A DNA stretch of 64,000 nucleotides from an uncultured Candidatus Rokubacteria bacterium (GCA_963747235.1 CAVVEU010000013.1:224001-288000); one strand, 5' to 3'; numbered from the stretch's first letter, positions 30,472 through 60,341 are shown. The notes: a model not told the origin generated them from the letters alone. Numbers and translations: made by a program.

Positions 30472-30487
30472 CGCACGCCACGTGCCA
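30472..30487 (-). promoter_or_regulatory. Sigma-54 -24/-12 promoter for lmo0937-like/SOD/DUF3185 genes
   Basis: TGGCACGTGGCGTGCG (GG-N10-GC). Confidence 0.7.
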
Positions 30488-30575
30488 CCGGGGTCGGCGT
30501 GGCCGAAGTGCGCGATTCCGCGATGGAGAAGTCGCGCTGATGCGGCGCGCGTGGGGACGCGGCGACGCGGGGGCG

Positions 30576-30588
30576 GGTCAAGATTACC
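30576..30588. promoter_or_regulatory. Candidate enhancer (UAS) site
   Basis: GGTCA-AGA-TTACC, one mismatch to GGTAA-N3-TTACC, about 90 bp upstream of the promoter at 30487. Confidence 0.45.
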
Positions 30589-30626
30589 GAGTAGAACGGT
30601 TCCGATCGCGGGCGATCGCGCGCACG

Positions 30627-30642
30627 TGGCATGTCACTTGCG
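30627..30642 (+). promoter_or_regulatory. Sigma-54 -24/-12 promoter (divergent)
   Basis: TGGCATGTCACTTGCG. Confidence 0.75.
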
Positions 30643-30735
30643 ACATTTCAGGCGTCATGAGAACTCCACGCCCGTTGCAGATGGAGAATCTGATCCCGAT
30701 GGCGGCGCGAGCGACGATAGGATTCGACCCGCGCG

Positions 30736-30876
30736 ATGACGACGGCGCTGGGCGCCCTGGTCCTCGTGACGAGCCTGGTGCCGGTGTTCGCGGTGTGCAT
30801 GGCCGCGCTCGGCGCGCGGCAGCCCGACCGCGGGCGACTCAGGCGCTCGTCGGCGTCCGCCCGAGAATCCGCCTGA
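30736..30876 (+). CDS. Putative 46-aa single-TM peptide
   Basis: [46 protein letters not shown] downstream of a sigma-54 promoter; the true start may be ATG 30657 with an indel. Confidence 0.4.
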   Translation: MTTALGALVLVTSLVPVFAVCMAALGARQPDRGRLRRSSASARESA

Positions 30877-32281
30877 TCCCGGCCAGCGGGATCGCGACCC
30901 AGTCGGGGCGGTTGTCGAGCTCGTAGCGGAGCTCGTAGGCCGCCTTCTGCAGCTCGAACGGGGCGCACCGCCGAGAGCAGCGCGCCGGCGGTCGCCGGGA
31001 CGAGCGGCGTCGGGCTCCGGGTCACCTCGCGCGAGATACCCGGCCAGGAAGGCGTCGCGGGCCTGCGCCTCCCAGGCGGTGAGGGCCACGAGGGCCGCCG
31101 CCCGCTCGGGTTCCGGCCGGCGGAAGGCGACCGCGTGCGCCGCGTAGTCCAGGGAGCGCAGCATGCCCGCCACGTCGCGCAGGGCCGGCTGCTTCCGGCG
31201 GCGCTCGGCCAGCGGCCGGGCCGGCTCGCCCTCGAAGTCGATGATCACGAAGCCGTCGGCGGTCTTGAGCACCTGGCCGAGATGGTAGTCGCCGTGGACG
31301 CGGATCTTCGCGGTCGCCCCCGCGAGCCGGTCGAGCATCGCGAGCGCCCGGGCCACCGCGTCCGTCATGTGCGCGGCGTCGCCCGTGAGCTGCGCGCCGA
31401 GCACGGGGGCCGCCAGCTCGCGCGCGATCTCGCCGGCCCACCCCGCGACGTCGTCGCGGCCGACGGGCTCGGGGCGGAAGTCGGCGTCGCGGTCGTCGGA
31501 GGCCAGCGCGGCGTGCAGGCCCCCGGTGATCGCGCCCAGGCGGCGCACGTCTTCCACGAGCGGATCCGGCACGAGCGGATCGGGCCGGCGCGCGATGTCC
31601 GCGCCGCGTCCCGCGAGCGTCGAGACCACGTGGGTCCATCCGTCCCCGGTATTCGGCACGAACTCCTGGAGCACCGCGAGCGTCGCGGGCTCGCCCGCCC
31701 CGGCGTACTCCACCCAGCCCGCGAGCCGCGGCACGTGGCGGAAGGCGGTGCGGGTGGTGAGGAAGCGCGTGATCTCGAGATCGGGGTTCAGGCCGGGCTG
31801 GGGCCGGCGCAGCGACTTCAGCACGAGATCGCCGACCACGACGGAGGTATTGCTCTGCTCGCCGGTGAGGCGCCGCGCGGCCAGCGCGTCCGGATCGGCC
31901 GGAAACGCCCAGCCCGTGGTGGGCCGGAAGGCGAAGCGGCCGTGGCGGCCGTCGGCCGAGCGGCCGGCGGCGATGGCGGCGAGCACGCGGCGGCCGAAGC
32001 GCGGGTCGTGGTGGGCGTCCACCACCGCCTCCGCGCCGGCGCGGGCGAGCACGGCCTCCGGTGCGCCCTCGGCCGACACGGTGACCGGGACGTAGTAGGG
32101 GTCGCCGTCCACCGCGAGGAGCAGGAGCACGAGCGGCCCGTCGGGATCGAGGACGGCCCAGTCGAGCACCTCCACCGCCGCGATGCCGCGGGTCTTGGCC
32201 GCGAACCAGCGCTGGCGGATCAGGAAGCGCGCGAGATCGGAGCGGCCGGGGCCCGAGAGCAGCGCGACGAGCGCGGCGGGA

Positions 32282-32307
<26 letters not shown>
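30839..32307 (-). CDS. mak: Maltokinase Mak/Pep2 (indels near 31030 and 30960)
   Basis: [42 protein letters not shown]; C-terminal [16 protein letters not shown] is in another frame. Confidence 0.88.
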
Positions 32308-33962
<1,655 letters not shown>

Positions 33963-34073
33963 GGCCGGCTCACGGGTTGGGCGGGCGATCGGTTGTCCGC
34001 CCACAGACGAGTGTCCGGGGCAGTAGCCTGGCGAGGTGAAGCCGAAGGCGAGCCGAGCGGATAAATAATGCCG

Positions 34074-34115
34074 TTAAGGCTTTCAAGGGTGTTCAAGGCG
34101 TCGGTGTTCAAGGCG
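34074..34115. repeat. Short direct repeats in glgE-treS spacer
   Basis: GGTGTTCAAGGCG at 34088-34100 and 34103-34115; partial TTCAAGG at 34082 and TTAAGGC at 34074. Confidence 0.7.
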
Positions 34116-34123
34116 CAAGCTGT

Positions 34124-36107
34124 TCACGCGTAATAGTCAAAATCGCGCTCGCGCCGTCGCCAGCGGCCCACGCGATAGACATGCGCGGGCGCGATGCGCG
34201 GGTCGAGCGTGACCGCGTGGGTGGCGCCGCGCACGAGGCGGCGGTCGCCGCCCAGGAGCTCGTGGAGCTCGTAGGTCTCGTCGGGGGCGATGCCGATCTC
34301 GGCGAGCGGGATCTGCAGCGTGGCCTCGTGGGTGGCGAACGGGTCCAGGTTGATCGCGACCAGGATCACGTTGTCGCGTGCGGGCGTGAGCTTGCCGTAG
34401 AAGAGCACGTGCGGGCTGTCGGCCGCGTAGAAGCGCAGGCCGGCCATGGTGTGGAGCGCCGGGTTCTCGCTCCGGATCGCGTTGAGCCGCGCGATGTAGT
34501 CCGAGATGTTGCCGGGCGCGCTCCAGTCGCGCACCCGGATCTCGTACTTCTCCGAGGCCTGGTACTCCTCGCTGCCGGGCAGGGGTGTCGACTCGCAGAG
34601 CTCGTAGCCGCTGTAGATGCCCCAGACGGACGAGAGCGTGGCGGCCAGGGCGGCCCGCATGCGGAAGGCGGGTGGCCCGCCGCGCTGCAGCACCTCGGGG
34701 AGGATGTCGGGCGTGTTGACGAAGAAGTTGCCGCGGAAGTACTCGGCCATCTCCGAGCGCGTCAGCTCCTCGAGATACTCGGTCAGCTCCTCCTTGAAGT
34801 TGCGCCAGGTGAAGTAGGTGTAGGACTGGGTGAAGCCGGCCTTGCCGAGCGCGCGCATCACCTTGGGACGCGTGAAGGCCTCGGAGAGGAACACCACGTC
34901 GGGATCGCGGTCCTGGACCTCCCGGATCAGCCAGATCCAGAAGTCGAGCGGCTTGGTGTGCGGGTTGTCCACCCGGAACGTTCGCACGCCCTGGTCGATC
35001 CAGAATCGCACGACGCCCAGCAGGGCGTCCCAGAGCGATTCCCAGGCCGGGGTCGCGAAGTTGATCGGGTAGATGTCCTGGTACTTCTTGGGCGGGTTCT
35101 CCGCGTACTTGATGGTGCCGTCGGGCCGCTGGTAGAACCACTCCGGGTGCTCCCGCACCCACGGGTGATCCGGCGAGCACTGGATCGCGAAGTCGAGCGC
35201 GATCTCCATCCCCAGGCCCTGGGTGGTCTTCACGAGGCGGCGGAAGTCCTCGAGCGTGCCGAGCTCCGGATGCACCGCGGTGTGGCCGCCCTCGGGGCCG
35301 CCGATGGCCCACGGGCTGCCCGGATCGGCGGGGCCCGCGACCAGCGCGTTGTCCGGGCCCTTGCGCGCGGTGCGGCCGATGGGATGGATGGGCGGGAGAT
35401 AGACGACGTCGAAGCCCATGCGGCGGATCTCGGGGAGTCGGTCCACGCAGTCGTCGAAGGTCCCGTGGCGGCCGGGGACGAGGCCCTGCGAGCGCGGGAA
35501 CAGCTCGTACCAGGCCGCGAAGGCGGCCGCCGGCCGGTCCACCACCACCTCGAGCTCCCGGTCGTGGCGCGTGAGATCGGGACGCGGCTGGACGCGCGCC
35601 ATCACCTGGCGCGAGGTCGGGGTCGAGCAGCACGTCGAGGCGGCGGTCGCGCGAGGTCGCGGCCTCGAGCCGCTCCAGCGCGCGGGCCAGGGCGGCCGCG
35701 TCGGCGTCCGGCGCCCCTTCGCGCGCGCGCCGGAGCATCGCGCCGCCTTCCAGCAGCTCGCTCGTGAGATCGGCCTGCCCGCCGGCCAGGCGCCGCCGCA
35801 TCTCCTCGACCCAGGAGCCGAAGGCGTCGGTCCAGGCCTCCACGGTATAGCGATAGCGGGTGTTGGCCTCGAGCGGGAACGAGCCGGCCCAGCCGTCATT
35901 GTCCACCGGGAGGAGCGGCGCCGCGCGCCAGTCGGTCTCCCCGGCGGCGCGGAAGCGGATGGACGCGGCGAGCAGATCGTGGCCTTCCTTGAAGATGTCG
36001 GCGGTGACGGTCACGCGATCTCCGACGACGCGCTTGACCGGATAGCGGCCGTCGTCCACCGCGGGGCGTACGTGCTCGATCACGATCGGCCGGCGGGTCC
36101 GGCTCAT
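34124..36107 (-). CDS. glgE: Alpha-1,4-glucan:maltose-1-phosphate maltosyltransferase (indel near 35610)
   Basis: WYELFPRS, YLPPIHPIG, YAENPPKKYQDIYP, FRVDNPHTKP, LSEAFTRP motifs. Confidence 0.95.
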
Positions 36108-37339
36108 CGCCACCGATCCACCAGGTAGGACTTGTCCTCCTCGAACATGCCGCCCAGGCGCGTCGCGCTCTGGACCAGGGCGGCGGGCGGCCGCGCGCTG
36201 GTCTCGATGACGACGGACGCGGCGCGACCCAGGTAGAGCGGGGCCAGCGACTGGACGGCGTGGCTCCGGTAGACGACGCGGGCGCGATAGGCGAGCAGGA
36301 AGTCGTACACCACGCGCGTCCACAGCCGGTCGGAGAAGCGGAAGCGCTCGAGCGGCCGATCGCTGAGCTCGAGCACCTCGCCCAGATTCTCGGGGGCCAG
36401 GATGCGCTCCCACACCGGGAGGAGATCGCGCACGCCCTGGACGAAGCCGACCTGCATCAGCGAAGGATCCACCGTGGGCCCGCCCGGCAGCGGCTCGGGC
36501 GGGGCGCCGAAGGTCACCACCGGCTCCGACCCGCGGATGTCCAGCCAGTAGTGCTCCGACTGTTCGGCCAGGGCGAAGAGGGCGCCGGCCACCCGGCCCA
36601 CCGTGCGCCCGAGCGGGGCGGGCGGCTGGGTGGCCGCCACCGTCCGTGGGCCCAGCACGGCCTGCGCCACCGTGAAGCCCCGCTCGATCGCGGCCGCGGG
36701 GATCCAGAACTCGAGGCCGTGATGGCCGAGGTCCGTCTCCCAGACCGGATCCGCGAGGAAGGCGTCGGCGACCGCCCCCGAGCAGGCGAACTCCTCGGCC
36801 AGCGGATGGATGAGCTGCCGCCCGAAGAGGCTACGCATCAGCGGCACGACGAGGGCCTGGGTGAGGGTGCCGTCGTAGCGGTAGCGATGGTAGATCGGCA
36901 GCACGAGCCCGACGTCGTCCTTGAGCACGGGCGTGGCCAGGGCGCGGACCCAGTCCACGGTGGTGCTGCCGAGATCGGCGTTGAGCATCACGAGCGCCCG
37001 CGCCTCGAGCCTCCGGCCGACGGTGAGCATCGTGCGCACCGCCTGCGCCCAGTCGAGCGCGCCGTCCGCGGTGTGCCCGGCCCCGGCGGCCCGGATCACG
37101 CGCACGGGGCCCAGGGCGGCGGCCAGGGCGGCCGGCGTCTCCTCGGACGGGGCCTGGTCCACGTGCACGACCACCGCGGCCTGGCCCGCGAAGTGCGCGT
37201 CCAGGCCCGCGCGCACCGCGGCGGCCACCGCGGCGACGGTGGCGCTCGGCCCGGCGGTGGCCAGGCCCACCACGAGGTCGGCGGTGCCGATCCGCTCGAC
37301 GGTGGTCCGGACCTCGTCGGCGAGCTCGAGCGTCTCCAT
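36104..37339 (-). CDS. Glucosylglycerate-synthase-like GT-A protein, degenerate
   Basis: PIYHRYRYDGTLT...PLMRSLFG and PLYLGRAAS family motifs; the DxD position reads NAD. Confidence 0.7.
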   Translation of the reverse strand: METLELADEVRTTVERIGTADLVVGLATAGPSATVAAVAAAVRAGLDAHFAGQAAVVVHVDQAPSEETPAALAAALGPVRVIRAAGAGHTADGALDWAQAVRTMLTVGRRLEARALVMLNADLGSTTVDWVRALATPVLKDDVGLVLPIYHRYRYDGTLTQALVVPLMRSLFGRQLIHPLAEEFACSGAVADAFLADPVWETDLGHHGLEFWIPAAAIERGFTVAQAVLGPRTVAATQPPAPLGRTVGRVAGALFALAEQSEHYWLDIRGSEPVVTFGAPPEPLPGGPTVDPSLMQVGFVQGVRDLLPVWERILAPENLGEVLELSDRPLERFRFSDRLWTRVVYDFLLAYRARVVYRSHAVQSLAPLYLGRAASVVIETSARPPAALVQSATRLGGMFEEDKSYLVDRWR

Positions 37340-38541
37340 CACCGGGTGAGATGGGCGAGCAGCGCGAGATAGTCGCTGAGCTGGCGGGTCACGAGGAAAT
37401 TGCGGCGCACGTGCTCGCGCCCGGCCGCGCCCATGCGGCCGATGAGCTCGGGGTTGCTCAGGAGCTGCCGGATGCGGAACGCGGCCCCTTCCACGGTTTC
37501 CACGGTATACCCGGTGACGTTCACGACCATCTGAAATGGGATGCCCCCCGCGATGGTCCCGATCACCGGCTTGCCCTTCCACATCGCGGTGGCCACCTCG
37601 ATGGTGAAGTCGGCCTTGAGCGGCTTCTGGATCGCGATCGTCGCCGCGCGCTCGAGCGCGTTCAGCTCGGTCTGGGGATCGGGGGGCAGGACGATCACCG
37701 CGATGTCGGGATCCTGCCCGGCCGCTTCCTGGACGTCGGCGAGGACGTCGCCGCCGGGCGCGGGAGGCGGACCGGCCAGCACGAGCCGGACGTCGTGGTG
37801 CTTCTTCACGAGCCGGAAGGCGTTGATGACGCCGAGCGGGTCGTGCTGGCGCTCGAACGGCCCCACCTGGAGCAGGATCGGCTTGTCGCGCGGGACCTGG
37901 AGGCGATCCATCTGGGCGGCCTGCTCGGCGCGGGTCATCTCGCGGTTGCGCTCGGAGAGCGGATCGATGGACGGGTAGACGACGAACCGCGGGATGGAGA
38001 GCGGCGTGGCGAAGCGGGCGAGGGAGAAGACGGCCGCGTCGTAACGCTGGGCGATCGGGCGGAGCGCGCTCCAGATCTGCGGCTGGGCCGAGGAGAGATC
38101 CTGGTGGCAGCGCCACACCCAGCGCCCGGCGCCGCCGCGCTGCTCGACCAGGCCCAGCGGCGGCGCGTCGTGCACCATCACGAGATCGGCGTCGAGCCGG
38201 AGCCGGCGCGCGTTCTCGGCCGCGGTCTCGCGCAGGCGGGCCAGCATGGCCTCGGTGATGACCTGCTCGGTGCCCGCGAGGGCCCGGCTCACCGCGCGGC
38301 CGACCTGGTCGAAGTCCGCGGTGCCGATCGTGATCTCCCAGGTGGTGTCCACGCCCAGGTCGTTCATGATCGGGACGAGCCGGTTCAGCACCTCCACCCC
38401 CGCGCCCCCGTAGCGCGAGGCGCTCACGTGCACGAAGCGCTTCCCGCGCAGGCGCTCGCCGATGCGCATGAGGATGTCCACCGCGCCGCGGGGGGCGACC
38501 TGCCGGTAGTCGTCGAGCTTGAGCAGCGAGCTCTGGGCCAT
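37339..38541 (-). CDS. TreT-like GT4 glycosyltransferase, degenerate
   Basis: VMVHD, WVWRCHQD, PSIDPLSERN, AMWKGKPV, GREHVRRNFL motifs. Confidence 0.8.
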   Translation of the reverse strand: MAQSSLLKLDDYRQVAPRGAVDILMRIGERLRGKRFVHVSASRYGGAGVEVLNRLVPIMNDLGVDTTWEITIGTADFDQVGRAVSRALAGTEQVITEAMLARLRETAAENARRLRLDADLVMVHDAPPLGLVEQRGGAGRWVWRCHQDLSSAQPQIWSALRPIAQRYDAAVFSLARFATPLSIPRFVVYPSIDPLSERNREMTRAEQAAQMDRLQVPRDKPILLQVGPFERQHDPLGVINAFRLVKKHHDVRLVLAGPPPAPGGDVLADVQEAAGQDPDIAVIVLPPDPQTELNALERAATIAIQKPLKADFTIEVATAMWKGKPVIGTIAGGIPFQMVVNVTGYTVETVEGAAFRIRQLLSNPELIGRMGAAGREHVRRNFLVTRQLSDYLALLAHLTR

Positions 38542-39203
38542 CAGGCGGCTCCGTCCGCGATGGCGTCGGACAGGATGTTGAGATGGCGGTCGCGAATGCG
38601 CTCGAGGCTGCCCGCGTACGGGTCGATGTGGGCGAGCCGGTCGGCGACGTCGGGGAGGCCGAGCGCCCCCGCGACCCATTCGGCGAAGTCGCCGCGCCCG
38701 CGGCCGGCGCGGTAGCGCGCCTCGATCGTGTGGTAGAAGAGCGCGCTCACGTCCACCTCGACCAGCGCGTCGCGCAGCTCCGGGAGCGTGCGGGCCTGGT
38801 GGCCGGTGGGCACCGGGATGAGGTGCATCTGGAAGAAGCGGAATCGCTTGCCCTGCGTGCGGGCGGGTGCTCCGCCGAGATGCTGGAGGTGATCCGAGAT
38901 GGTGGCGACCAGCTCCTCGCGCACCCGCTCCATCGAGCCCGCGTGGAAGGCGTCCACCCCGGCCAGGCGCTCCGCGAGGCGCACGTCGCGCACCTCGGTG
39001 CCGACCCAGAGCGCGAAGTCGTTGGGATAGGCCTCGGCCAGCACCGGCCGGTGCAGCAGCGAGGCCGAGGTGTGGCAGAAGACGGACTCCACCGGCACGC
39101 GCTCGAGCTGCTCGAGCAGCTCGCGGGCGTCGTGGGCCTCGTGGGGCAGCAGCTCGTTCAGCTCGAGGCAGCCGAGGAAGACGAAGGGCTCGGTCGGGCT
39201 CAT
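38541..39203 (-). CDS. DUF5752-like protein (TreT-associated)
   Basis: Internal repeat PFVF...SVFCHT...NDFALWV / FRFF...ALFYHT...GDFAEWV; IDPY motif. Confidence 0.8.
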   Translation of the reverse strand: MSPTEPFVFLGCLELNELLPHEAHDARELLEQLERVPVESVFCHTSASLLHRPVLAEAYPNDFALWVGTEVRDVRLAERLAGVDAFHAGSMERVREELVATISDHLQHLGGAPARTQGKRFRFFQMHLIPVPTGHQARTLPELRDALVEVDVSALFYHTIEARYRAGRGRGDFAEWVAGALGLPDVADRLAHIDPYAGSLERIRDRHLNILSDAIADGAA

Positions 39204-39232
39204 GCGGTAAGCTCTCCCGGGGGACGACACCT

Positions 39233-40396
39233 GTGAGAATCCTGCTCCTGAGCCGAGAGTATCCGCCGCACGTCTATGGCGGCGCCGGTGTGGTGGTGGA
39301 TCACCTGAGCCGCGCGCTCGCCCGCCGCGCGTCGGTCGAGGTGCGCTGCTTCGGCGAGCAGAAGCAGACGCAGCCCCTGACCGTGCAGGGCTATGCGCCG
39401 TGGCCGCGCCTGGCCGGCGGGCCGGAGGCGCCCTACGCGCCCGCGCTCGAGGCCCTCTCGGTGGGGCTCGCGATGGCGCGCGATCCGGTGGCCGCCGACG
39501 TGGTGCACACGCATACCTGGTACGTGGGGCTGGGCGGGATGCTGGTGCAGTCCATCCACGACGTCCCGCTCGTGGTCACGCTCCACAGCATGGAGCCGCT
39601 CCGGCCGTGGAAGGCCGATCAGCTCGGCACCGGCTACGCGGTGTCGAGCTGGGCCGAGCGGCTGGCCGTCGAGCGCGCGGACCGCGTCATCGCGGTGTCG
39701 GCCCAGATGCGCGGCGACATCTTGACGCACTTCCAGGTCGATCCGGACCGGGTGGTGGTGATCCACAACGGGGTGGACGCGGACGCCTTCGCGCGCACCG
39801 AGCGGCGCGACGCGCTCGCGCGTCACGGGGTGCGCGCGCCCTACGCGCTGTTCGTCGGCCGGATCAGCGAGCAGAAGGGGATCTTCCAGCTCCTGGAGGC
39901 GGCGCGGGCCCTGCCCGCGGGCGTCCAGCTCGTGCTCTGCGCGAGCAGCCCGGACACGCCGGAGCTGCTCGCCCGGCTCGAGGCGGCGGTCGCGGGGCGC
40001 CCGGAGATCCACTGGATCAACGCGATGCTGCCGGTGCCCGAGGTGGTCCAGCTCTACAGCCACGCCGCCGTCTTCGTCTGCCCGTCCATCTACGAGCCGT
40101 TCGGCCTGATCAACCTCGAGGCGATGGCCTGCGGCACCCCGGTGGTGGCGAGCCGGGTCGGCGGCATCCCCGAGGTGGTGGTGGACGGCGAGACCGGCCG
40201 GCTGGTGGAGCCCGGCGACGTCGCCGCGCTCGGGCAGGCGCTGCGGGAGACGCTGGCCGATCCCGAGCGAGCCCGCCGCATGGGCGAGGCCGGGCGGCGC
40301 CGGGTGGAAGCGCACTTCTCGTGGGACCGCATCGCGGACCGGACGCTCGCCGTCTATCAGGACGCGATCGAGCATCACGGGCGCGCACTCAGGTAG
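39233..40396 (+). CDS. glgM: GlgM/GlgA-like GT4 (alpha-maltose-1-phosphate synthase type)
   Basis: REYPPHVYGGAG, HTHTWY, HSMEPLRPWKADQLG, GRISEQKG, CPSIYEPFGLINLEAMAC motifs. Confidence 0.88.
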   Translation: MRILLLSREYPPHVYGGAGVVVDHLSRALARRASVEVRCFGEQKQTQPLTVQGYAPWPRLAGGPEAPYAPALEALSVGLAMARDPVAADVVHTHTWYVGLGGMLVQSIHDVPLVVTLHSMEPLRPWKADQLGTGYAVSSWAERLAVERADRVIAVSAQMRGDILTHFQVDPDRVVVIHNGVDADAFARTERRDALARHGVRAPYALFVGRISEQKGIFQLLEAARALPAGVQLVLCASSPDTPELLARLEAAVAGRPEIHWINAMLPVPEVVQLYSHAAVFVCPSIYEPFGLINLEAMACGTPVVASRVGGIPEVVVDGETGRLVEPGDVAALGQALRETLADPERARRMGEAGRRRVEAHFSWDRIADRTLAVYQDAIEHHGRALR

Positions 40397-45200: not shown

Positions 45201-45250
45201 CGGCGCAACGCGGCCGCCGCCTGCTGGAAGAGGACGCCGACATCGATCAT
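42222..45250 (-). CDS. treY: Malto-oligosyltrehalose synthase (indels near 44175, 43620, 43110, 43050)
   Basis: ATYRLQ, GSSHGYDV, DVVPNHM, NYRRFFD, LRVDHPDGL, AKGVEDT, THDTKRGED, LVDPDNRRPVD across frames. Confidence 0.92.
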
Positions 45251-45253
45251 GCG

Positions 45254-46021: not shown

Positions 46022-46037
46022 CGCAGAAAGGCTGCCG
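46022..46037 (-). promoter_or_regulatory. Possible sigma-54 promoter for mscS-like/treY/treZ
   Basis: CGGCAGCCTTTCTGCG (GG-N10-GC, weaker consensus). Confidence 0.45.
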
Positions 46038-46076
46038 GGCGTGGACGGCGCGCCGCCACGTCGGGGTTACCGGCCT

Positions 46077-46091
46077 CGGTAACGTTTACCG
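46077..46091. promoter_or_regulatory. Candidate enhancer (UAS) palindrome
   Basis: Perfect CGGTAA-CGT-TTACCG about 100 bp upstream of the promoter at 46188; second half-site TTACC at 46067-46071. Confidence 0.55.
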
Positions 46092-46187
46092 ATCCCTCGC
46101 GTGTCCGCTGGAGCCCGCGGCGCGAGGCCGCGCAATCGGGCCCGCGGTTTTTCGAGTGCTTAGCCCCGGCGGCTCGCGAACGGCTCG

Positions 46188-46203
46188 TGGCACAAGGCTT
46201 GCC
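46188..46203 (+). promoter_or_regulatory. Sigma-54 promoter for psiE-like/DUF296 genes
   Basis: TGGCACAAGGCTTGCC. Confidence 0.8.
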
Positions 46204-46777: not shown

Positions 46778-47240
46778 ATGAAGATCCAGCAGCTCGACGA
46801 GGTCGAGGGGCGGCGGACGTTCGTGATGGTGTGCGACCGGGGCGACGATCCGGTGGAGGCCCTGACCGCGGCCGCCAAGCGCTTCGATCTCTCCGGTGCC
46901 TCGCTGACCGGGATCGGAGCCTTCTCGGGGGTGACGCTCGGATTCTTCGACCGGGCCCGGCGCGACTATGCTCGCCGGGTCATCCGGGAGCAGGTCGAGG
47001 TGGTCTCGCTGCTCGGCAACGTCGCGCTCGACGGCGGCGAGCCGCGGGTGCACGTCCACGTGGTGGTCGCCCGGTACGACGGGAGCGCCCTCGGGGGCCA
47101 CCTCCTGGGCGGCACCGTGGACCCCACGCTGGAGGTCATGCATCGTCGAGTCGCCCAAGACCCTTCGCCGAAAGACCGACCCGGCCACCGGGTTGGCTCT
47201 TCTCGACGTCGGACTGGAGTCGGTCGTAGTTACACGGTAA
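46778..47240 (+). CDS. PPC/DUF296 domain protein (indel near 47140)
   Basis: TGIGA, EVVSLLGN, HVHVVV, GGHL, PTLEV motifs; GAGGAG RBS. Confidence 0.88.
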
Positions 47241-47371
47241 TATCTTCCCGACGCTGGGTCTCGGCCCGGCAACTCTAGGCTCTAGTGGATGTTGAGCTGT
47301 ACGCCGTAACCATCAGTGGGATTTACCGTTGTATCAGTTTTGCCGATCGGGGTCCTCCCGGTGGTCTTCGA

Positions 47372-47387
47372 GGGCATATCGCTTGCA
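47372..47387 (+). promoter_or_regulatory. Sigma-54 promoter upstream of the bEBP gene
   Basis: GGGCATATCGCTTGCA. Confidence 0.7.
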
Positions 47388-47459: not shown

Positions 47460-48831
<1,372 letters not shown>

Positions 48832-49734: not shown

Positions 49735-49747
49735 GCTCTGACTGGCG

Positions 49748-49763
49748 AGCAAGTGACGTGCCA
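49748..49763 (-). promoter_or_regulatory. Sigma-54 promoter for the SPOR gene
   Basis: TGGCACGTCACTTGCT. Confidence 0.8.
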
Positions 49764-49886: not shown

Positions 49887-49902
49887 TGGCACGCGGGTTG
49901 CG
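49887..49902 (+). promoter_or_regulatory. Sigma-54 promoter for the ANTAR gene
   Basis: TGGCACGCGGGTTGCG. Confidence 0.8.
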
Positions 49903-50671: not shown

Positions 50672-50687
50672 TGGCATGGGCGATGCA
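50672..50687 (+). promoter_or_regulatory. Sigma-54 promoter for the operon ending in the PBP gene
   Basis: TGGCATGGGCGATGCA. Confidence 0.7.
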
Positions 50688-50714: not shown

Positions 50715-51054
50715 ATGGAAATGATCGTGGTGGCGACGATGCTGCTCGTGGTCGTGCTCCTGGGAGTCGCTGTCAAGCTCTACGACCTCAAGCGGAAGCG
50801 TGAGGATGAGGCGATCGCGGCCCAGGCCAGGATCTCCGATGCGTTGCTGATGGACGCGACCCTGGCCGGCCTTGCCGCTGACGCCGACCGCGCATCTGCC
50901 GCTCTGGAAGGGCTCGCCGCTCGTCGTCGAGCTCACCGGCGCCGTGCCCAGGGCCGAGCTGCGAGAGGCCGCCGTGGACGTGGCCAGGCGGGAGATGGGT
51001 CGTAGCCGGTCCGACTTTCGGATCGAGGACCGGATCGCGGTCCGCGCGGCCTAG
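50715..51054 (+). CDS. Small membrane-anchored protein with BON-like domain (indel near 50872)
   Basis: N-terminal TM, ARISDALL.D, VELTGAVP...LREAA, IEDRIAV; GGAGGTG RBS. Confidence 0.55.
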
Positions 51055-51057
51055 CGC

Positions 51058-51690
51058 ATGCGCGTCTCGTATCTGATTCCGCCCTGTCTGATCTCAGTGG
51101 TCCTGGTGGGGCTCGCGGTCCTGGCCCCGGCGCCCGCGCGCGCCGGGGCCCCGACCGACCAGCTCAAGGCCTCGGTCGACCAGATCGTCAAGGTCCTGGA
51201 GGATCCGTCTCTCAAGCCGGAGGCCCGGGGCCGGGAGCGTCGGGCCGCCATCCGCAAGGAGGCCGAGGGCGTCTTCGACTTCACCGAGACGGCCAAGCGC
51301 GCCCTGGGCCGGCACTGGCAGGGACTGGCCGAGAAGGATCGGCAGGAGTTCACCGCGCTCTTCACCGATCTCATCGAGCGGGCCTACATCTCGAAGATCG
51401 AGCGGTACAGCGGGGAGCGCATCGCGTACGCGGGCGAGGCGGTGGACGGCGGCCTCGCGACGGTGCGAACGCGGTTCGTGACCAAGCAGGGCACCGAGGT
51501 CCCGGTGGACTATCGTATGCAGCAGCGGGGCGAGCGGTGGCTCGTGTACGATGTGGCTGTCGAGGGCGTGAGCTTGATCAACAACTACCGGACCCAGTTC
51601 GACAAGATCATCCAGACCTCCTCGTATGCCGAGCTGGTCCGGAAGATGAAGGCGGCCGAGTTCGCCCAGCCGGCCTCCCCGCGGTCGTGA
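51058..51690 (+). CDS. MlaC/Ttg2D phospholipid-binding periplasmic protein
   Basis: FDF...KRALGRHW, VDYRM, WLVYDVAVEGVSLINNYRTQF motifs. Confidence 0.9.
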   Translation: MRVSYLIPPCLISVVLVGLAVLAPAPARAGAPTDQLKASVDQIVKVLEDPSLKPEARGRERRAAIRKEAEGVFDFTETAKRALGRHWQGLAEKDRQEFTALFTDLIERAYISKIERYSGERIAYAGEAVDGGLATVRTRFVTKQGTEVPVDYRMQQRGERWLVYDVAVEGVSLINNYRTQFDKIIQTSSYAELVRKMKAAEFAQPASPRS

Positions 51691-52083
51691 GCGCGCGCGT
51701 GTCGCGAGCCGGGCTCGGCCGGCTGCTGGCCGGGGTCGCCGTCGCTGCTGGCCCTCGCGCTGGTGGGAATGGGCGTGGCCCCGGCGGGGGAGCGTCGCGC
51801 CGGCTCGGTCCTCGCGGTGGATCCCCAGGCGCGCACCCTGACCCTCGACGAGTTCGGCGCCAATGCCGAGCGGCGCGCCCTGCGGGTGCAGGTCCCGCGC
51901 GAGGCGGTGGTGCTGCTGTCGCAGCGCAACCAGGCCGGCCGCGACGTGAAGGACAGCTTCCGGGACAGCACGATCACCCTCGCCGACGTGCGCGTGGGCG
52001 ACTTCGTGGTGCTCGAGATGTCGGACGACCCGGAGGTGGCCCGGCTGGTGATGATCACCCTGCGGAGGGGTGCCGGGTCCTAG
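51687..52083 (+). CDS. Hypothetical exported small beta-rich (OB-fold-like) protein (indel near 51745)
   Basis: GSVLAVDPQARTLTL...ITLADVRVGDFVVL; signal-like N-terminus in another frame. Confidence 0.55.
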
Positions 52084-52102
52084 TGCGAGGGGAGGCCGCC
52101 TG

Positions 52103-54409
52103 ATGGCCGACGGGTGGGGAGGCTGGTTCCACGGCCTTCGTCGGTGGACTCTTCTCGCGGGCGTGCTGCTGGCCATCGTGGTGCTGGTCGGCGGCGGGCT
52201 CGCCATCTACGCGGCGCGCGCGCTCTCGCGGTTCGAGCGGGTGGAGGCGCGTCGCTCCACCGTGCTGTACGCCGCCCCACCCGTGCTCCGGCCGGGTGTG
52301 AACGTGAGCGCGCTCGATCTGGCCGGGATCCTGGGCCGTCAGGGCTATCGCGAGACCCGCAACGCGGGCGCACCCGGCCAGTTCTCCCGCTCGGAGAGCG
52401 CGTGGGAGATCAACGTGGCCGGCGCGGCCCGCGTCACCCTGGCCGTGTCGGGCGGGCGCATCACCCAGCTCCGCCAGGGCGACACCGCGGTCCAGAGCGT
52501 CGCGCTGCCCCCCGAGCTGCTGGCGAGCGCCGGCGCGGACATGGGCGAGAACATCCGCCCGGTGCGCCTGCCCGATGTTCCCCAGCTCCTGCGCGACGCG
52601 GTCCTGGTCACCGAGGACGTGCGCTTCTACGAGCACGGTGGCGTGGACCCTCGCGGCATCGTGCGCGCGCTGTGGACCAATGTCCGGAAGGGCCGGGTCG
52701 CCGAGGGGGGCAGCACCATCACCCAGCAGCTCGTCAAGAGCCGGCTGCTCAACCCGGAGCGCACGCTCGCCCGCAAGATCAACGAGGCGCTGCTGTCGAC
52801 CGCGCTCGAGTGGCGCTACAGCAAGGACCAGATCCTCGAGGCCTACCTCAACGAGATCTATCTGGGGCAATCGGGCGGCTCGGCGGTGCGCGGCGTCGGC
52901 GCCGCCTCGCGGGCCTACTTCGGCAAGGAGGTCCATCAGCTCTCGCTGACGGAGTCCGCACTGCTCGCCGGGATGATCCGCGGCCCCAACAACTACTCGC
53001 CGGTCGCCAATCCCGAGCGGGCGCGCGAGCGGCGCGACGTGGTGCTGACTCGCATGCGCGGCCTCGGCAAGATCTCGGAGGCCGACTACCAGCGCGCGCG
53101 CAAGGAGCCGGTGCGGGCGCGCACGACGCCGGCGAACGGGCTGATGGCGCCGTACTTCGTGGACTACGTGCGCGCCGAGCTCGAGCGGAATGCCGACATC
53201 GACCTGGCCGACCTGCACGGGGTGCGGGTCTACACCACGCTCGATCCGGTGCTGCAGCGCGTGGCCGAGGCCGCGGTGGTGAAGGGCATGGACCGTCTCG
53301 AGACGCTGCGCCCGCGGCTGCGCCGCAAGAATCCGGAGGAGCGCCTGCAGGTGGCGATGATCGTGCTCGACCCGGCCACCGGACAGGTGCGCGCGCTCGT
53401 CGGGGGCCGCGACTACCGGGCGAGCCAGTTCAACCGGGCCGTCCTCGCCCGCCGCCAGCCGGGTAGCGCGTTCAAGCCGTTCGTGTTCCTGGCCGCGCTC
53501 ACGCCGCGGAAGGACGCGAGCCTCTTCACCCCCGCCTCGCTGATCGAGGACGCGCCCATCACGGTGATGGTGGACGGCAAGCCGTGGACGCCCAAGAACT
53601 ACGACGACCGCTACGAAGGGCCGGTCACGGTGCGCCGGGCGCTGGAGGGCTCGCTGAACACCGCGACCGTGCGGGTCGCCCAGGCGGTGGGCCTGCCCGT
53701 GGTCATCGAGACGGCGCGGACGATGGGCATGGAGGTGGATCTCAAGCCGGTGCCCGCGCTCACTCTGGGTGTCTTCGAGATCACGCCGCTGGCGCTCGCG
53801 CGCGCGTACCTGCCGCTGGCCAACGGGGGCCTGGCGCCGTCCGGCGGCGGGGTGGTGGAGACGGTCGCCGACGAGGGCGGGCGCGCGCTCTGGAGCGCGA
53901 GCCGCGAGACGCGCCCGGTGATCGGCGCGCCCGAGGCCTTCCTGGTCACCTCGCTGCTGGAGGGCGTGGTCAACGTGGGGACCGCGGCTTCCGCGCGCGC
54001 GGCGGGGGTGCCCGGCGCGGTGGCCGGCAAGACGGGGACGACCAACGAGGGCCGGGACGCCTGGTTCGTCGGCTACTCGCCCAACCTGCTCGCGCTCGTC
54101 TGGGTGGGCTTCGACGACGGCACGCCGGCCGGGCTATCCGGGTCGGAGGGCGCGCTGCCGATCTGGTCCGAGTTCATGCGACAGGCGCTCGACATCTACC
54201 CGGGTGGCGCGTTCCCGGAGCCGGCCGGCATCACCCACGCGAAGGTGGACGTGACCACCGGCCGCCGGGCCACCGCGTTCTGCCCACTCGTCGCGACCGA
54301 GGTGTTCCTGGCCGGCAGCGAGCCGCCGCCGTGCGAGGAGCATGGCGGGAGCGTCACGGAGCAGGTCGAACGCTGGTGGGATAAGGTCCGGGGCTGGTTC
54401 GGAAAGTAG
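52103..54409 (+). CDS. Bifunctional class A penicillin-binding protein (PBP1B-like)
   Basis: EDVRFYEHGG, GGSTITQQLVK, RKINE transglycosylase motifs; SAFK, SLN, KTG transpeptidase motifs. Confidence 0.93.
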   Translation: MADGWGGWFHGLRRWTLLAGVLLAIVVLVGGGLAIYAARALSRFERVEARRSTVLYAAPPVLRPGVNVSALDLAGILGRQGYRETRNAGAPGQFSRSESAWEINVAGAARVTLAVSGGRITQLRQGDTAVQSVALPPELLASAGADMGENIRPVRLPDVPQLLRDAVLVTEDVRFYEHGGVDPRGIVRALWTNVRKGRVAEGGSTITQQLVKSRLLNPERTLARKINEALLSTALEWRYSKDQILEAYLNEIYLGQSGGSAVRGVGAASRAYFGKEVHQLSLTESALLAGMIRGPNNYSPVANPERARERRDVVLTRMRGLGKISEADYQRARKEPVRARTTPANGLMAPYFVDYVRAELERNADIDLADLHGVRVYTTLDPVLQRVAEAAVVKGMDRLETLRPRLRRKNPEERLQVAMIVLDPATGQVRALVGGRDYRASQFNRAVLARRQPGSAFKPFVFLAALTPRKDASLFTPASLIEDAPITVMVDGKPWTPKNYDDRYEGPVTVRRALEGSLNTATVRVAQAVGLPVVIETARTMGMEVDLKPVPALTLGVFEITPLALARAYLPLANGGLAPSGGGVVETVADEGGRALWSASRETRPVIGAPEAFLVTSLLEGVVNVGTAASARAAGVPGAVAGKTGTTNEGRDAWFVGYSPNLLALVWVGFDDGTPAGLSGSEGALPIWSEFMRQALDIYPGGAFPEPAGITHAKVDVTTGRRATAFCPLVATEVFLAGSEPPPCEEHGGSVTEQVERWWDKVRGWFGK

Positions 54410-54425
54410 CGGGCCGGGTCGGGGG

Positions 54426-54740: not shown

Positions 54741-54751
54741 GCCGGGGTACG

Positions 54752-54767
54752 AGCAATCTGCGTGCCT
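54752..54767 (-). promoter_or_regulatory. Sigma-54 promoter for the PilZ gene
   Basis: AGGCACGCAGATTGCT. Confidence 0.75.
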
Positions 54768-54887
54768 CGGCGAGATGCGCGCCAGATCAGGGACTTGAAT
54801 CCATGTTAGCCCCACGGCGGACCGTCAAGTCGGTGTCGTGACGCTGACAGTGTTCGCCGGCTGCCAAAGCGTGTACAGTCGGGGGCC

Positions 54888-56264: not shown

Positions 56265-56295
56265 GTTCCCCCGGGGGCCTTTATCGACCTCCGGG

Positions 56296-57586: not shown

Positions 57587-57725
57587 GCGGGCCTCCAGTG
57601 GGTGGCGGTCGTGGGCCAGTGGGTGTGGATCTCCGGCTCGTCCGAGATTATAGAATCGCGCGGCCGACTGCGATACCCTCGGGCATCCTGATTCCCGGGT
57701 TGCCCCTGACAGAGGAGGAAGACCG

Positions 57726-59252
57726 ATGCCGCTCTTCGCCTGGATCGTGGCCCTGTCGCTGACGATTGGCGCCTCGCTCGCGCACGCCCAGCCGGCGCAG
57801 ATCACGATCGTGCAGCCCGCGGAGGCCACCACCATGGATCCGGGGCGGAGCACCCAGGTCCTGACCGTCAATTACTTCTACAATCTCTATGACTCGCTCC
57901 TCCGATGGGACACCGCGCTGCAGCTTCAGCCCGGCCTGGCCACCGCCTGGCGGGCGGTGAACGAGACCACCTGGGAGTTCACGTTGCGCTCGGGCGTCAA
58001 GTTCCACGACGGCGCTCCGCTCACCGCGGACGACGTGCGGGCCACGCTCGAGCGGAACCTCGTCCCGGGCAAGACGGTCGTGACCGCCGGCTTCACCACC
58101 ATCGAGTCGGTCCAGGCGGTCACGCCGACCCTCGTGCGCGTGATCACCAAGAAGGCGGATCCGCTCCTGCCGGTGCGCATGGCCCAGATGGGCTCGCAGA
58201 TCCTGCCCGCCCGCCTCACCACCGACGACGGGGTGAAGGAGCTGGCCCGCCGGCCGATCGGCAGCGGCGCCTACCGGTTCGTGGAGTGGGTGAAGGACGA
58301 GCGGCTCGTGATGGAAGCCAACCGTGACTGGTGGGGATGGGAGGGCCGCGCCCCCGCGATCGACCGCGTAGTCTGGAAAGCGATCCCGGACGACTTCCCC
58401 CGGCTGGTGGCCCTCGAGAAGGGGGACGTCGACATCGTCACCAGCCTGCCGCCCGACCGCATCAAGTCCATCGCGGAGGGCCGGAACACGCGGGTGGTGA
58501 GCGTGCCGTCCTCACGCACCGTGGAGTTCAACATCAACACCACCCAGCCGCCGCTGGCCGACAAGCGCGTGCGCCAGGCCATGCATCACGCGCTCGACGT
58601 GCCCGCGATCATCCGCAGCCTCTTCGCGGGGCTCGGCAAGCCCATGGCCGGCGCGCTCGCCGACACCGACTTCGGCTACAACCCGGCCATCAAGCCCTAT
58701 CCCTACGACCCTGGGCGGGCCCGGGCCCTGCTCGGAGCGGCGGGGTTCGCCGGCGGGATCGACGTGACGCTGCACGCGGGCATGGGCACGATGGTCAACG
58801 ACAAGCAGCTCCTCGAGGTGGTGGCGGACATGTGGTCGAAGGTCGGGATCCGGGCGAAGGTCGCCATGATGGAGATGGGCGCGCGCCAGCGCATGGTCAA
58901 CGAGCGGGCCTTGCCCCCGGGGGGCCTGCTGCTGATCAACGTGCAGTCCACCCTGCTGGATGCCGACGGCAGCCTGTGGCGCATCATGCACCCGACCGGG
59001 CTGGGCGGGAAATACTGGGTCGGCAGCCAGCCCGGCCACCGGTTCCACGAGGTGATGGAGCAGGCCCGTTACACGCTCGACCCGAGGCAGCGCAAGGCGC
59101 TCTACGGCGAGGCCACCCAGATCATCGACGACGAGAAGCCCTGGCTCGAGCTCTTCCAGGAAGTCATCGTGTACGGGACGTCCAAGCGCGTCACCTTCCG
59201 CCCGCGGCCGGACTTCCGTCTCATCGTGTCGGAGATGTCGCTCAGCCGCTGA
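57726..59252 (+). CDS. ABC transporter substrate-binding protein, family 5 (peptide/nickel)
   Basis: Signal peptide, PGLATAW...WEFTLRSGVKFHDG, PIGSGAY, DKRVRQA motifs. Confidence 0.92.
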   Translation: MPLFAWIVALSLTIGASLAHAQPAQITIVQPAEATTMDPGRSTQVLTVNYFYNLYDSLLRWDTALQLQPGLATAWRAVNETTWEFTLRSGVKFHDGAPLTADDVRATLERNLVPGKTVVTAGFTTIESVQAVTPTLVRVITKKADPLLPVRMAQMGSQILPARLTTDDGVKELARRPIGSGAYRFVEWVKDERLVMEANRDWWGWEGRAPAIDRVVWKAIPDDFPRLVALEKGDVDIVTSLPPDRIKSIAEGRNTRVVSVPSSRTVEFNINTTQPPLADKRVRQAMHHALDVPAIIRSLFAGLGKPMAGALADTDFGYNPAIKPYPYDPGRARALLGAAGFAGGIDVTLHAGMGTMVNDKQLLEVVADMWSKVGIRAKVAMMEMGARQRMVNERALPPGGLLLINVQSTLLDADGSLWRIMHPTGLGGKYWVGSQPGHRFHEVMEQARYTLDPRQRKALYGEATQIIDDEKPWLELFQEVIVYGTSKRVTFRPRPDFRLIVSEMSLSR

Positions 59253-59271
59253 CGCGGCGCTGGAGGCCGAG

Positions 59272-60297
59272 CTAGGAAGGAAGCGCGACGCGCGCGAGCA
59301 GCTTCACGTCGTCCAGCAGCGCCCCGGCCCCGCGCACCACGCAGGTCAACGGGTCGTCGCTCACGCGGATCGGCAGGCCGGTCTGCTCGTGCAGCAGCAG
59401 GTCGAGCCCGCGCAGGAGCGCGCCGCCGCCGGACACCACGATGCCCTTGTCCACGATGTCGGCGGCCAGCTCGGGCGGGATCTGCTCGAGGCACGTGTGC
59501 ACCGCGCTCACGATGGCCATGATCGGCTCGCGCAGCGCCTCGCGGATCTCCTCGCCGGTCACCAGGATGGTCTTGGGAATGCCGACGATCAGGTCGCGGC
59601 CCTTGACCTCCATGGTGAGGTGCTCGCCCGCCACCGGGTAGGCGGAGCCCAGCCGCAGCTTGATGTCCTCGGCGTGGCGCTCGCCCACGAGCAGGCTGTA
59701 GTTCTTGCGGATGTGCTGGATCACCGCGGTGTTCATCTCGTCGCCCGCGATGCGGGCGGACTTGCAGTAGACGATCCCGGACAGGGACATCACCGCGACC
59801 TCGGTGGTGCCGCCGCCGATGTCCACGATCATGTTCGCGCCCGGCTCGGCCACCGGGAGGCCCGCACCGAGGGCCGCCGCAATGGGCTCCTCGATCAGAT
59901 AGGCCTCGCGAGCCCCCGCCTGCTTGGCCGACTGGCGCACCGCCCGCTTCTCCACCTGGGTGATCCCCGAGGGCACCGTGACCACCACGCGCGGGTGCAC
60001 GATGCTCCGCCGCTGGTGGGTCTTGCGGATGAAGTAGTGGAGCATCTTCTCGGTGGAGTCGAAGTCGGCGATGACGCCGTGGCGGAGGGGCCGGATGACC
60101 GAGATGCTCCCGGGAGCGCGGCCGAGCATGGCCTTGGCCTCGTGGCCGGCGGCCAGCACCACGCCGTCCTTCATGGCCACGATGGAGGGCTCGTTGAGGA
60201 CGATGCCCTGTCCTCTCACGTACACGAGAGTATTGGCGGTTCCCAGATCCACCGCCAGGTCGTCGGCCAGGAAGCTCATGAGGGATCTCAGACGCAT
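59272..60297 (-). CDS. mreB: Rod shape-determining protein MreB (solitary copy)
   Basis: DLGTANT, EPSIVA, IEEPIAAALG, DIGGGTTE, SGGGALL motifs. Confidence 0.95.
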   Translation of the reverse strand: MRLRSLMSFLADDLAVDLGTANTLVYVRGQGIVLNEPSIVAMKDGVVLAAGHEAKAMLGRAPGSISVIRPLRHGVIADFDSTEKMLHYFIRKTHQRRSIVHPRVVVTVPSGITQVEKRAVRQSAKQAGAREAYLIEEPIAAALGAGLPVAEPGANMIVDIGGGTTEVAVMSLSGIVYCKSARIAGDEMNTAVIQHIRKNYSLLVGERHAEDIKLRLGSAYPVAGEHLTMEVKGRDLIVGIPKTILVTGEEIREALREPIMAIVSAVHTCLEQIPPELAADIVDKGIVVSGGGALLRGLDLLLHEQTGLPIRVSDDPLTCVVRGAGALLDDVKLLARVALPS

Positions 60298-60325
60298 ATC
60301 CGGTCCTTTCGGGACAGGGAAGCAA

Positions 60326-60341
60326 CGCAACGGATGTGCCA
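60326..60341 (-). promoter_or_regulatory. Sigma-54 promoter for mreB
   Basis: TGGCACATCCGTTGCG. Confidence 0.8.

Follow-up and report, generated by a model that had tools for sequence, protein, structure and literature searches.

A dense island of predicted sigma-54 promoters before stress and envelope genes in a 64-kb stretch of an uncultured Rokubacteria genome

General stress regulons are run by RpoS in Escherichia coli, by SigB in Bacillus and by EcfG in the Alphaproteobacteria. The DosR dormancy regulon of Mycobacterium tuberculosis uses a NarL-type activator and sigma-70-type promoters. At sigma-54 (RpoN) promoters, the closed complex starts transcription only once the ATPase of a bacterial enhancer-binding protein (bEBP) bound upstream remodels it. 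E. coli has sigma-54 stress promoters at pspA, served by PspF, and at ibpB, and Myxococcus xanthus has many bEBPs, sigma-54-driven bEBP genes and a starvation programme with a change of shape. Francke and colleagues (2011, PMC3162934) suggested that sigma-54 governs the exterior of the cell, and predicted sigma-54 regulons have been surveyed in 33 classes (Carrera-Reyna et al. 2025, PMC12316311). The text of the survey names LpxC (COG0774) and ANTAR-type regulators (COG3707) among the predicted targets, and Usp (COG0589) as enriched in Planctomycetia. Acidobacteria are not mentioned in the texts of either article, whose supplements may list related taxa, and we found no such regulon in the literature on sigma-54 with Acidobacteria, Acidobacteriota or Rokubacteria. 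Here we describe a stretch of 64,000 nt from an uncultured Candidatus Rokubacteria bacterium (G000:C13:224001-288000, called the window below) in which sigma-54 promoters are predicted before stress and envelope genes. We think it likely that this genome has two dense islands of genuine sigma-54 promoters, of which the window is one, and that sigma-54 acts there as a stress and envelope sigma factor through several activators, beside an RpoS-like sigma factor.

The cargo classes overlap with those of the RpoS, SigB and EcfG regulons (Usp, CsbD, BON/OsmY-like proteins, a small heat-shock protein, superoxide dismutase (SOD) and a hibernation factor, with osmoprotection genes nearby). The likeness is in cargo only, since the promoters are of the -24/-12 type and not those of a dedicated sigma-70-family factor. 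With a factor of the sigma-54 family, each promoter needs an ATP-driven activator, so several signals can be wired separately. As at pspA and ibpB of E. coli, small heat-shock and membrane-stress genes lie behind sigma-54 promoters, and one bEBP, on contig C25, has a PspF-like architecture; unlike there, the promoters number in the tens and the hsp20 site lies ~175 nt upstream and is kept across genera. The genome shares many bEBPs and sigma-54-driven bEBP genes with the M. xanthus network, but the bEBPs are far fewer (~20), and development is seen there whereas here there are genes alone. The cargo of the second island, on contig C39, is like that of DosR (several Usp, an alpha-crystallin HSP20, CBS proteins and S30AE/HPF), which is a resemblance and not membership, given the -24/-12 promoters. 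Like the sigma-54 exterior regulons in the published texts (PMC3162934, PMC12316311), this one has bEBP-dependent -24/-12 promoters and predicted cargo rich in envelope genes, here LpxC, LptC-LptA, MlaA/MlaC and the class A penicillin-binding protein PBP1A. Unlike them, it adds HSP20, HPF, CsbD, BON, SOD, an MreB paralogue and a bactofilin, and has two islands.

The window belongs to a metagenome-assembled genome (MAG) of 5.57 Mb in 42 contigs, with ~71% G+C. Genes were called with a script based on G+C at third codon positions (GC3) and named with Pfam and NCBIfam. The relatives compared were 8 syntenic stretches of the same genus and two other genera, g25 and g4 (G023). The tallies of MreB-like copies, of bEBP identity in other genera and of rpoN across the class include genomes flagged as unpublished (G070, G078 and G104), and no claim depends on these alone. 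A first-pass annotation of the window had listed ten elements resembling the RpoN consensus TGGCAC-N5-TTGC. All ten strings are present in the sequence, on the strands and at the positions it gave, and nine are supported as sigma-54 promoters:

30473..30487, minus strand: TGGCACGTGGCGTGC, with -12 box GTGC, before DUF5670-SOD-DUF202; ATG 64 nt downstream
30627..30641, plus strand: TGGCATGTCACTTGC, divergent from the SOD promoter, before a 46-aa peptide; ATG 94 nt away
46188..46202, plus strand: perfect match, before the PsiE-like and PCC genes; ATG ~200 nt away
47372..47386, plus strand: GGGCATATCGCTTGC, 2 mismatches, before the bEBP gene; ATG 73 nt away
49749..49763, minus strand: perfect match, before a 269-aa SPOR-like protein; ATG 14 nt after TTGC
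49887..49901, plus strand: perfect match, before an ANTAR response regulator; ATG 26 nt away
50672..50686, plus strand: variant TGGCATGGGCGATGC, with -12 box GATGC, before TM112-MlaC-unk106-PBP1A; ATG 28 nt away
54753..54767, minus strand: AGGCACGCAGATTGC, before the PilZ gene; ATG 12 nt after TTGC
60327..60341, minus strand: perfect match, before the MreB paralogue; ATG 29 nt away

Four of the nine match the consensus perfectly; the others deviate from it at one base (three sites) or at two (two sites). As had been claimed, they lie in intergenic gaps and point at the downstream gene, with a start codon 12-200 nt away, and the GG and GC doublets are exactly 10 bp apart at each. Three pairs of island promoters are divergent. 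The tenth element, the weak site CGGCAGCCTTTCTGC (46023..46037, minus strand) before the MscS-like gene, has 3 mismatches and does not qualify as a sigma-54 element. Since only 1 of the 7 relatives aligned retains its -12 GC, it was rejected as the promoter of that gene.

The number of matches exceeds that expected from base composition. With at most 1 mismatch, the window holds 8 matches to the consensus, compared to a mean of 3.06 in the shuffled background (sd 1.68, max 7), and 0 of 100 dinucleotide shuffles of the window attained 8. Seven of these 8 are elements from the first-pass annotation. None lies in 1-30472, in agreement with its statement that the intergenic gaps of the first 29 kb hold no comparable match. 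The eighth, a near-match at 63302..63316 (minus strand; TGGCACGGGTGTTCC), has TTCC at -12 and lies inside a CBS gene; without the -12 GC, it was not taken as a promoter. Over the whole genome, 37 of the 38 perfect matches fall in the 24% called non-coding (by whole segments, 36 non-coding and 1 coding), and five runs of a first-order Markov simulation of non-coding DNA gave 0-1 perfect matches. One-mismatch non-coding sites numbered 127, against 43-60 simulated. The orientation of the sites is biased as well, with 102 of 165 non-coding sites facing a start within 300 nt compared to 49 when each site is flipped. A density of 7 sites per 30 kb is reached only by the window region and contig C39.

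Conservation in relatives agrees with these counts. All nine sites keep both boxes, with a varying spacer, in 6-8 same-genus stretches. The sites of SOD (always GTGC) and of the 46-aa peptide are kept in 6/6, counted over the 6 stretches that reach that place. The PsiE site is kept in 7/8, and the stretch without PsiE, G019, has none. The sites of the bEBP, SPOR-like, ANTAR and PilZ genes (for PilZ the ATG distance too) are kept in 8/8, as is that of TM112, always with GATGC. The 15-mer of the MreB promoter is identical in 8/8. Orthologues of the ANTAR gene from 17 same-genus genomes are 68-89% identical, and both divergent SPOR/ANTAR sites are kept (at most 1 mismatch) in all 15 relatives' loci that have upstream sequence, while their 5-base spacer is variable. 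Outside the genus, g25 has the bEBP promoter at the same distance (GGGCACATCGTTTGC), and TGGCACGGCCGATGC stands directly after its bEBP gene, before a TM112 homologue followed by MlaC and the unknown 106-aa protein; its SOD gene and an MscS-trehalose cluster lie within 40 kb of the bEBP. In g4 a site lies 62 nt upstream of DUF5670, which is 2 kb from the bEBP. The nine sites are very probably genuine sigma-54 promoters.

The -12 box of the TM112 promoter belongs to a variant class, TGGCAC-N4-GATGC, in which GATGC stands in place of the TTGC-type box. Apart from 50672-50686 in the window, such sites are found at G000:C39:14402, C39:27552, C29:235595, C2:117050, C13:289105 and C14:238968, and they precede TM112, BON, HSP20, MlaC and single-domain response-regulator genes.

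The gene for sigma-54 itself, rpoN, is present (Sigma54_DBD, 210 bits, at C8:726117) with its N-terminal part in another frame. Of 71 genomes sampled in the class, 70 have rpoN. The lptC-lptA genes lie just upstream of rpoN and are themselves preceded by a one-mismatch sigma-54 site (G000:C8:723065), so rpoN may be autoregulated. Among the 16 matches to Sigma70_r2, three are group-1/2 types: one passes an RpoD model, another resembles RpoD but stays below the cut-off, and the third (C20:1418) scores best against the NCBIfam model of RpoS, with 315 bits vs a cut-off of 378.7. Given this RpoS-like factor, sigma-54 need not replace RpoS, and the proposal that it does so was not supported. A Borrelia-like cascade from sigma-54 to RpoS was also considered and rejected, since the RpoS-like gene has no sigma-54 site upstream.

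A bEBP is indeed encoded in the middle of the region. It has the architecture of the NtrC family, with a receiver, an AAA+ domain and a Fis-type HTH (Pfam Response_reg, Sigma54_activat, AAA_lid_14 and HTH_8, spread over two frames), and the GAFTGA loop is at residue 218. The reading frame is not intact in the assembly and is in one frame in 8/8 relatives. Identity is 95-98% within the genus, 75% in g25 and 73% in g4. The best named homologue comes from a Rokubacteria MAG (62% identity), and the best named bEBP matches are 47-62% identical and not syntenic. No NCBIfam equivalog reached its cut-off with the window bEBP; the best, AtoC, scored 310 bits with the N-terminal part alone vs 714. Genome-wide, 27 matched pieces correspond to ~20 bEBP genes, 3 of which are split in the assembly. 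A sigma-54 site was found upstream of ~3 of the 20, the window bEBP included. The PspF-like bEBP on contig C25 (L204, G000:C25:49700-51500) has 490 aa, lacks an N-terminal sensory domain and has its AAA+ domain from residue 7. The gene divergent from it is Ros/MucR-like and carries both a sigma-54 site and, 119 bp upstream, a GGTAATCCTTACC box. No bEBP of the genome attains the NCBIfam cut-off for PspF.

The DNA upstream of the promoters was compared for boxes that a bEBP might bind. Two of them are as follows:

46066..46092, no strand assigned: box GTTACCG...CGGTAACGTTTACCG (also written GTTACC...GGTAACGTTTACC), holding GTAA-N3-TTAC, 109 bp upstream of the PsiE promoter
47230..47240, no strand assigned: box TTACACGGTAA, ~140 bp upstream of the bEBP promoter

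The core of the PsiE box is invariant in 8/8 aligned sequences, and the box is a candidate bEBP binding site (upstream activating sequence). GTAA-N3-TTAC occurs 12 times in the genome, 8 of them 100-145 bp upstream of a sigma-54 site; these 8 include the PsiE and MreB promoters, the MreB box being 141 bp upstream. At the bEBP promoter, GTTACACGGTAA.A..TTCC is kept in 9/9 aligned sequences, and a related block, TTGCACGGTAAGAATTTCC, is found upstream of the bEBP promoter of g25. Other conserved blocks are TTTACACG...GGAAATTCC upstream of the TM112 promoter, GGAATTTCC (49832) between the divergent SPOR-like and ANTAR promoters, and GGTCAGGATTACCGGGTAGAAGGGTTCCGAT ~45-75 bp upstream of the 30627 promoter. 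TTAC/GTAA-type boxes recur upstream of several island promoters. TTACACG was tried as a shared box and rejected, since of its 51 occurrences in the genome 4 are in the window and only 2 of these 4 are upstream of sigma-54 promoters, which is too few.

A different box, CGCCTCA, is found elsewhere at -59 to -96 from the -24 box, mostly at Usp/CBS/BON promoters on contigs C39 and C31 (12 forward, 1 reverse). Its enrichment is modest overall (13 vs 7.2 expected), and it is absent from the promoters of the window. One Usp operon with a CGCCTCA promoter (C31:144746) lies directly behind another bEBP gene. Contig C39 carries no bEBP gene. Since the boxes differ from promoter to promoter, CGCCTCA is found only elsewhere and C39 has no bEBP, these data point to several sub-regulons and not one. 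With ~20 bEBPs in the genome, the idea that the window bEBP controls the whole 30 kb was not upheld. The only evidence that ties it to particular promoters, its own and that of TM112-MlaC-PBP1A, is their adjacency, which is kept in g25.

From these features the following mechanism is proposed. RNA polymerase with sigma-54 would bind each -24/-12 element as a closed complex and wait for its bEBP. Positive feedback would follow from the sigma-54 promoter of the window bEBP, whose targets most likely include its own gene and the neighbouring TM112-MlaC-PBP1A operon. The remaining island promoters, which have different conserved boxes, probably answer to other members of the ~20 bEBPs.

The genes behind the nine promoters, and three further sites, are as follows:

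29406..30408, minus strand: operon DUF5670-SOD-DUF202 (Pfam, synteny)
30259-30408, minus strand: DUF5670, 49-aa membrane protein (Pfam)
29641-30243, minus strand: Fe/Mn superoxide dismutase (Pfam)
29406-29615, minus strand: DUF202-like small membrane protein (Pfam)
30736..30876, plus strand: 46-aa predicted membrane peptide (translation; GC3 0.9), target of the 30627 promoter
46403-46753, plus strand: PsiE-like protein (Pfam)
46778-47278, plus strand: PCC-domain protein (Pfam)
47460..48831, plus strand: NtrC-type bEBP (Pfam), with a frame change of one base near 48300
48925-49734, minus strand: 269-aa protein with a SPOR-like C-terminus (Atlas clusters; Pfam SPOR E=0.0045, below cut-off)
49928-50662, plus strand: ANTAR response regulator (Pfam)
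50715..54409, plus strand: operon TM112-MlaC-unk106-PBP1A (Pfam, translation)
From 50715, plus strand: TM112, 112-aa single-pass membrane protein, with a frame change near 50870 in the assembly
51058-51690, plus strand: MlaC (Pfam)
51763-52083, plus strand: unknown 106-aa protein (unk106)
52163-54409, plus strand: class A penicillin-binding protein, PBP1A (Pfam)
54426-54740, minus strand: PilZ-domain protein (Pfam)
59272-60297, minus strand: MreB paralogue
C13:288069, C13:289105 and C13:291967: three further conserved sites, beyond the window

The three sites beyond the window precede, respectively, an unknown protein, a response regulator with PEPCK, and bactofilin-M23 peptidase-MscS-DUF6506. 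Within the island, SOD, DUF5670, the 46-aa peptide and PsiE form an oxidative-stress and small-membrane-protein group, and PilZ, the ANTAR regulator and the bEBP form a signalling group. PBP1A, MlaC, the SPOR-like protein and the MreB paralogue, with the bactofilin-M23 genes just beyond the window, form an envelope and shape group.

The genome has four MreB-like genes (the window copy, G000:C14:136190, C24:810897 and C6:26543). For the window copy, 95% matches were found only in its own genus, and in other genera the best matches are 72-74% identical, the same as to the C14 copy. By these identities the window mreB is a genus-specific paralogue, and the C14 copy looks like the family-wide orthologue. 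The 46-aa peptide has no Pfam family; tblastn matched it in 3/8 stretches at 80-83% identity. A GGGAGGG ribosome-binding site precedes the ATG of DUF5670. No ribosome-binding site was seen for the PilZ and SPOR-like genes (54740-54767 and 49734-49763), whose ATG is 12 and 14 nt past TTGC with the spacing kept across the genus; this suggests that their mRNAs are leaderless or nearly so. In the Atlas, the SPOR-like protein has mostly Methylomirabilota as neighbours. The ANTAR frame extends ~30 residues beyond the stop of most relatives, with 1 TGA inside the match in most orthologues. Rfam gave 0 matches in the window, at the hsp20 locus and in the 14 kb that follow the window.

Several genes are read in two or more frames in the assembly, namely mak, glgE, treY (at least 3 pieces), the bEBP, TM112 and rpoN. 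The spans concerned are 30839-32373, 34124-36413, 42222-45250, 47460-48831 and 50715-51054 in the window and ~725.1-726.6 kb on G000:C8.

To survey the cargo of sigma-54 outside the island, the first or second genes behind 73 sites, 116 in all, were searched with Pfam. Stress and dormancy cargo comprises several Usp, five small CBS proteins, HPF with baeRF, HSP20 with PCMT, CsbD, BON proteins, HU, OmpA with glutamate dehydrogenase, and DksA. Envelope cargo comprises MlaA, MlaC, LptC-LptA, LpxC and a YhdP-like protein. Nitrogen cargo is of the classical kind (Amt, a urea-type ABC transporter accompanied by an ANTAR regulator, and allophanate hydrolase). Behind the sites there are also two GGDEF-EAL proteins and numerous single-domain response regulators. 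A same-strand site lies within 3 kb upstream of 9-10 of the 19 Usp genes (within 600 nt for 6), 3 of the 7 BON genes and the single HSP20 gene.

The hsp20 site was followed through the family and is kept in at least 12 of its genera. Of 30 family loci, drawn from 30 genera, 13 carry a site of no more than 1 mismatch within 450 nt upstream; one of the loci without a site (L264) is from G070, flagged as unpublished. In the 12 orthologues that are closest (58% identity or more), the site stands at -170 to -191 in eight, two lack a site, and the remaining two have, respectively, a 2-mismatch site at -170 and a perfect one at -311. By this distribution, the predicted hsp20 site is old. The earlier claim that stress genes are carried under sigma-54 therefore stands in part. 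It stands for Usp, HSP20+PCMT, HPF, CsbD, BON, CBS and DksA genome-wide, and in the window for SOD, PsiE and small membrane proteins; much of the window's cargo, however, is for the envelope and cell shape. Since the same predicted promoter type precedes Usp, HSP20, HPF, CsbD, BON and CBS genes, sigma-54 is, on these predictions, a major stress and envelope sigma factor in the lineage.

The second island (G000:C39:4700-62400, 7 sites per 30 kb) has its own set of genes. Its sites precede HPF+baeRF, a triple-BON protein with three Usp genes, CBS with an M50 protease, HU+CBS, CBS+Usp, HSP20+PCMT, OmpA with glutamate dehydrogenase, a 579-aa HAD hydrolase, and Usp+CBS. This cargo resembles a dormancy regulon.

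Trehalose synthesis, the MscS-like channel and BON proteins had also been named as cargo in the window. The two features of the trehalose region are the following:

Within 30839..45934, minus strand: Mak, TreS, GlgE, GT2 (GpgS-like), TreT, DUF5752, TreZ, TreY and an MscS-like channel (Pfam, NCBIfam, Atlas)
39290-40396, plus strand: GT4 gene inside the trehalose cluster

The 15-kb trehalose cluster is present, but no site with at most 2 mismatches was found in its internal gaps, so its membership could not be confirmed. Pfam detected no BON domain in the window; TM112 matched no Pfam family, BON included, even in its intact form from relatives. The GT2 protein resembles glucosyl-3-phosphoglycerate synthases, and its Atlas neighbours are mostly Acidobacteriota. 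A 412-aa protein between glgE and treT (36104-37342) has no Pfam or NCBIfam family; in the Atlas it falls next to GT2 clusters and clusters like glucosyl-3-phosphoglycerate synthase, a hint of a second compatible solute.

Other explanations of the island were weighed. It is very improbable that the sites are GC-rich sequences matching by chance, or that they serve another factor as binding sites. Simulated non-coding DNA does yield 43-60 one-mismatch matches, and a strict scan would miss the two 2-mismatch sites. Yet perfect matches are 36-37 non-coding vs 1 coding, with 0-1 simulated, sites are biased toward genes in their orientation, rpoN and bEBPs are present, and the invariant GG and GC boxes beside a variable spacer across relatives already contradict this explanation. 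The first-pass annotation had instead read the region as one 30-kb general-stress or dormancy regulon, trehalose included, run by the single mid-region bEBP with sigma-54 in place of RpoS, SigB or EcfG. The bEBP has its own sigma-54 promoter and lies amid the sites, TTAC/GTAA-type boxes are found upstream of several of them, and the bEBP, SOD or DUF5670, TM112-MlaC and the MscS-trehalose cluster are linked in g25 and g4. We nevertheless consider this reading unlikely. The trehalose and MscS-like genes have no -24/-12 element, the boxes differ between promoters (GTAA-N3-TTAC, GGAAWTTCC and TTACACGGTAA), CGCCTCA marks Usp/CBS/BON promoters elsewhere and not in the window, and the genome has ~20 bEBPs and an RpoS-like sigma factor.

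Another possible explanation is a sigma-54/bEBP cascade that leads to a resting cell, as in Myxococcus, with the island remodelling shape and wall and C39 supplying dormancy proteins. The same genes could serve ordinary envelope stress repair, the lineage is uncultured and known here from genes alone, and the MreB paralogue is limited to one genus while the hsp20 promoter is family-wide. These points make the cascade improbable in our view, even with a genus-specific MreB paralogue behind a perfectly conserved promoter, bactofilin-M23-MscS behind the C13:291967 site, PBP1A and a SPOR-like protein in the island, HPF, HSP20+PCMT, Usp, CBS, BON and HU on C39, and a bEBP that is among the only ~3 of 20 with a sigma-54 site. 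In a broader proposal, which is possible although we hold it to be doubtful, sigma-54 with a few bEBPs would be the main general-stress and dormancy sigma factor. A DosR-like set and a shape module (extra MreB, bactofilin-M23, PBP1A and the SPOR-like protein) would make resting forms, and the self-activating window bEBP would be the commitment switch.

Several points weigh against the interpretation that we prefer, a stress and envelope sigma factor acting through several activators from two promoter islands. The promoters were identified here from sequence alone, in a MAG that is 88% complete with 4.9% contamination and with a crude GC3-based gene caller. By simulation, chance could account for ~40% of the one-mismatch sites genome-wide. 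The trehalose genes lack a site, and an RpoS-like sigma factor is present. No 5-7-mer convincingly separated the DNA upstream of island promoters from that of other sigma-54 promoters (the best, AACAT, was in 7/11 vs 12/93). When the DNA upstream of all sites was scanned for exact palindromes, GTAA-N3-TTAC (= GGTA-N5-TACC) came out best, with a p of 3e-5 that is not significant over ~70,000 patterns. For these reasons, which bEBP acts where has to be inferred. The frame breaks in the bEBP and rpoN genes are probably assembly indels: the bEBP and TM112 are in a single frame in relatives, and the assembly has many other broken frames (in all, mak, glgE, treY, TM112, rpoN and 3 of ~20 bEBP genes).

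The island is a further example of known gene-control wiring, real and well supported. Control of the exterior and of some stress genes by sigma-54 has already been published for other phyla; the result extends known biology and does not overturn it. Soil metagenomes of many studies contain DNA close to the window, and 6 metatranscriptome runs (contigs only) contain 5-11% of its sampled words. Because the promoters are short and each needs its cognate activator, they are testable in a heterologous reporter host and usable for reading metatranscriptomes. Rokubacteria-like soil bacteria are abundant and uncultured, and a conserved sigma-54 regulon of ~100 predicted promoters would be a first map of how stress, envelope and nitrogen genes are wired in such an organism.

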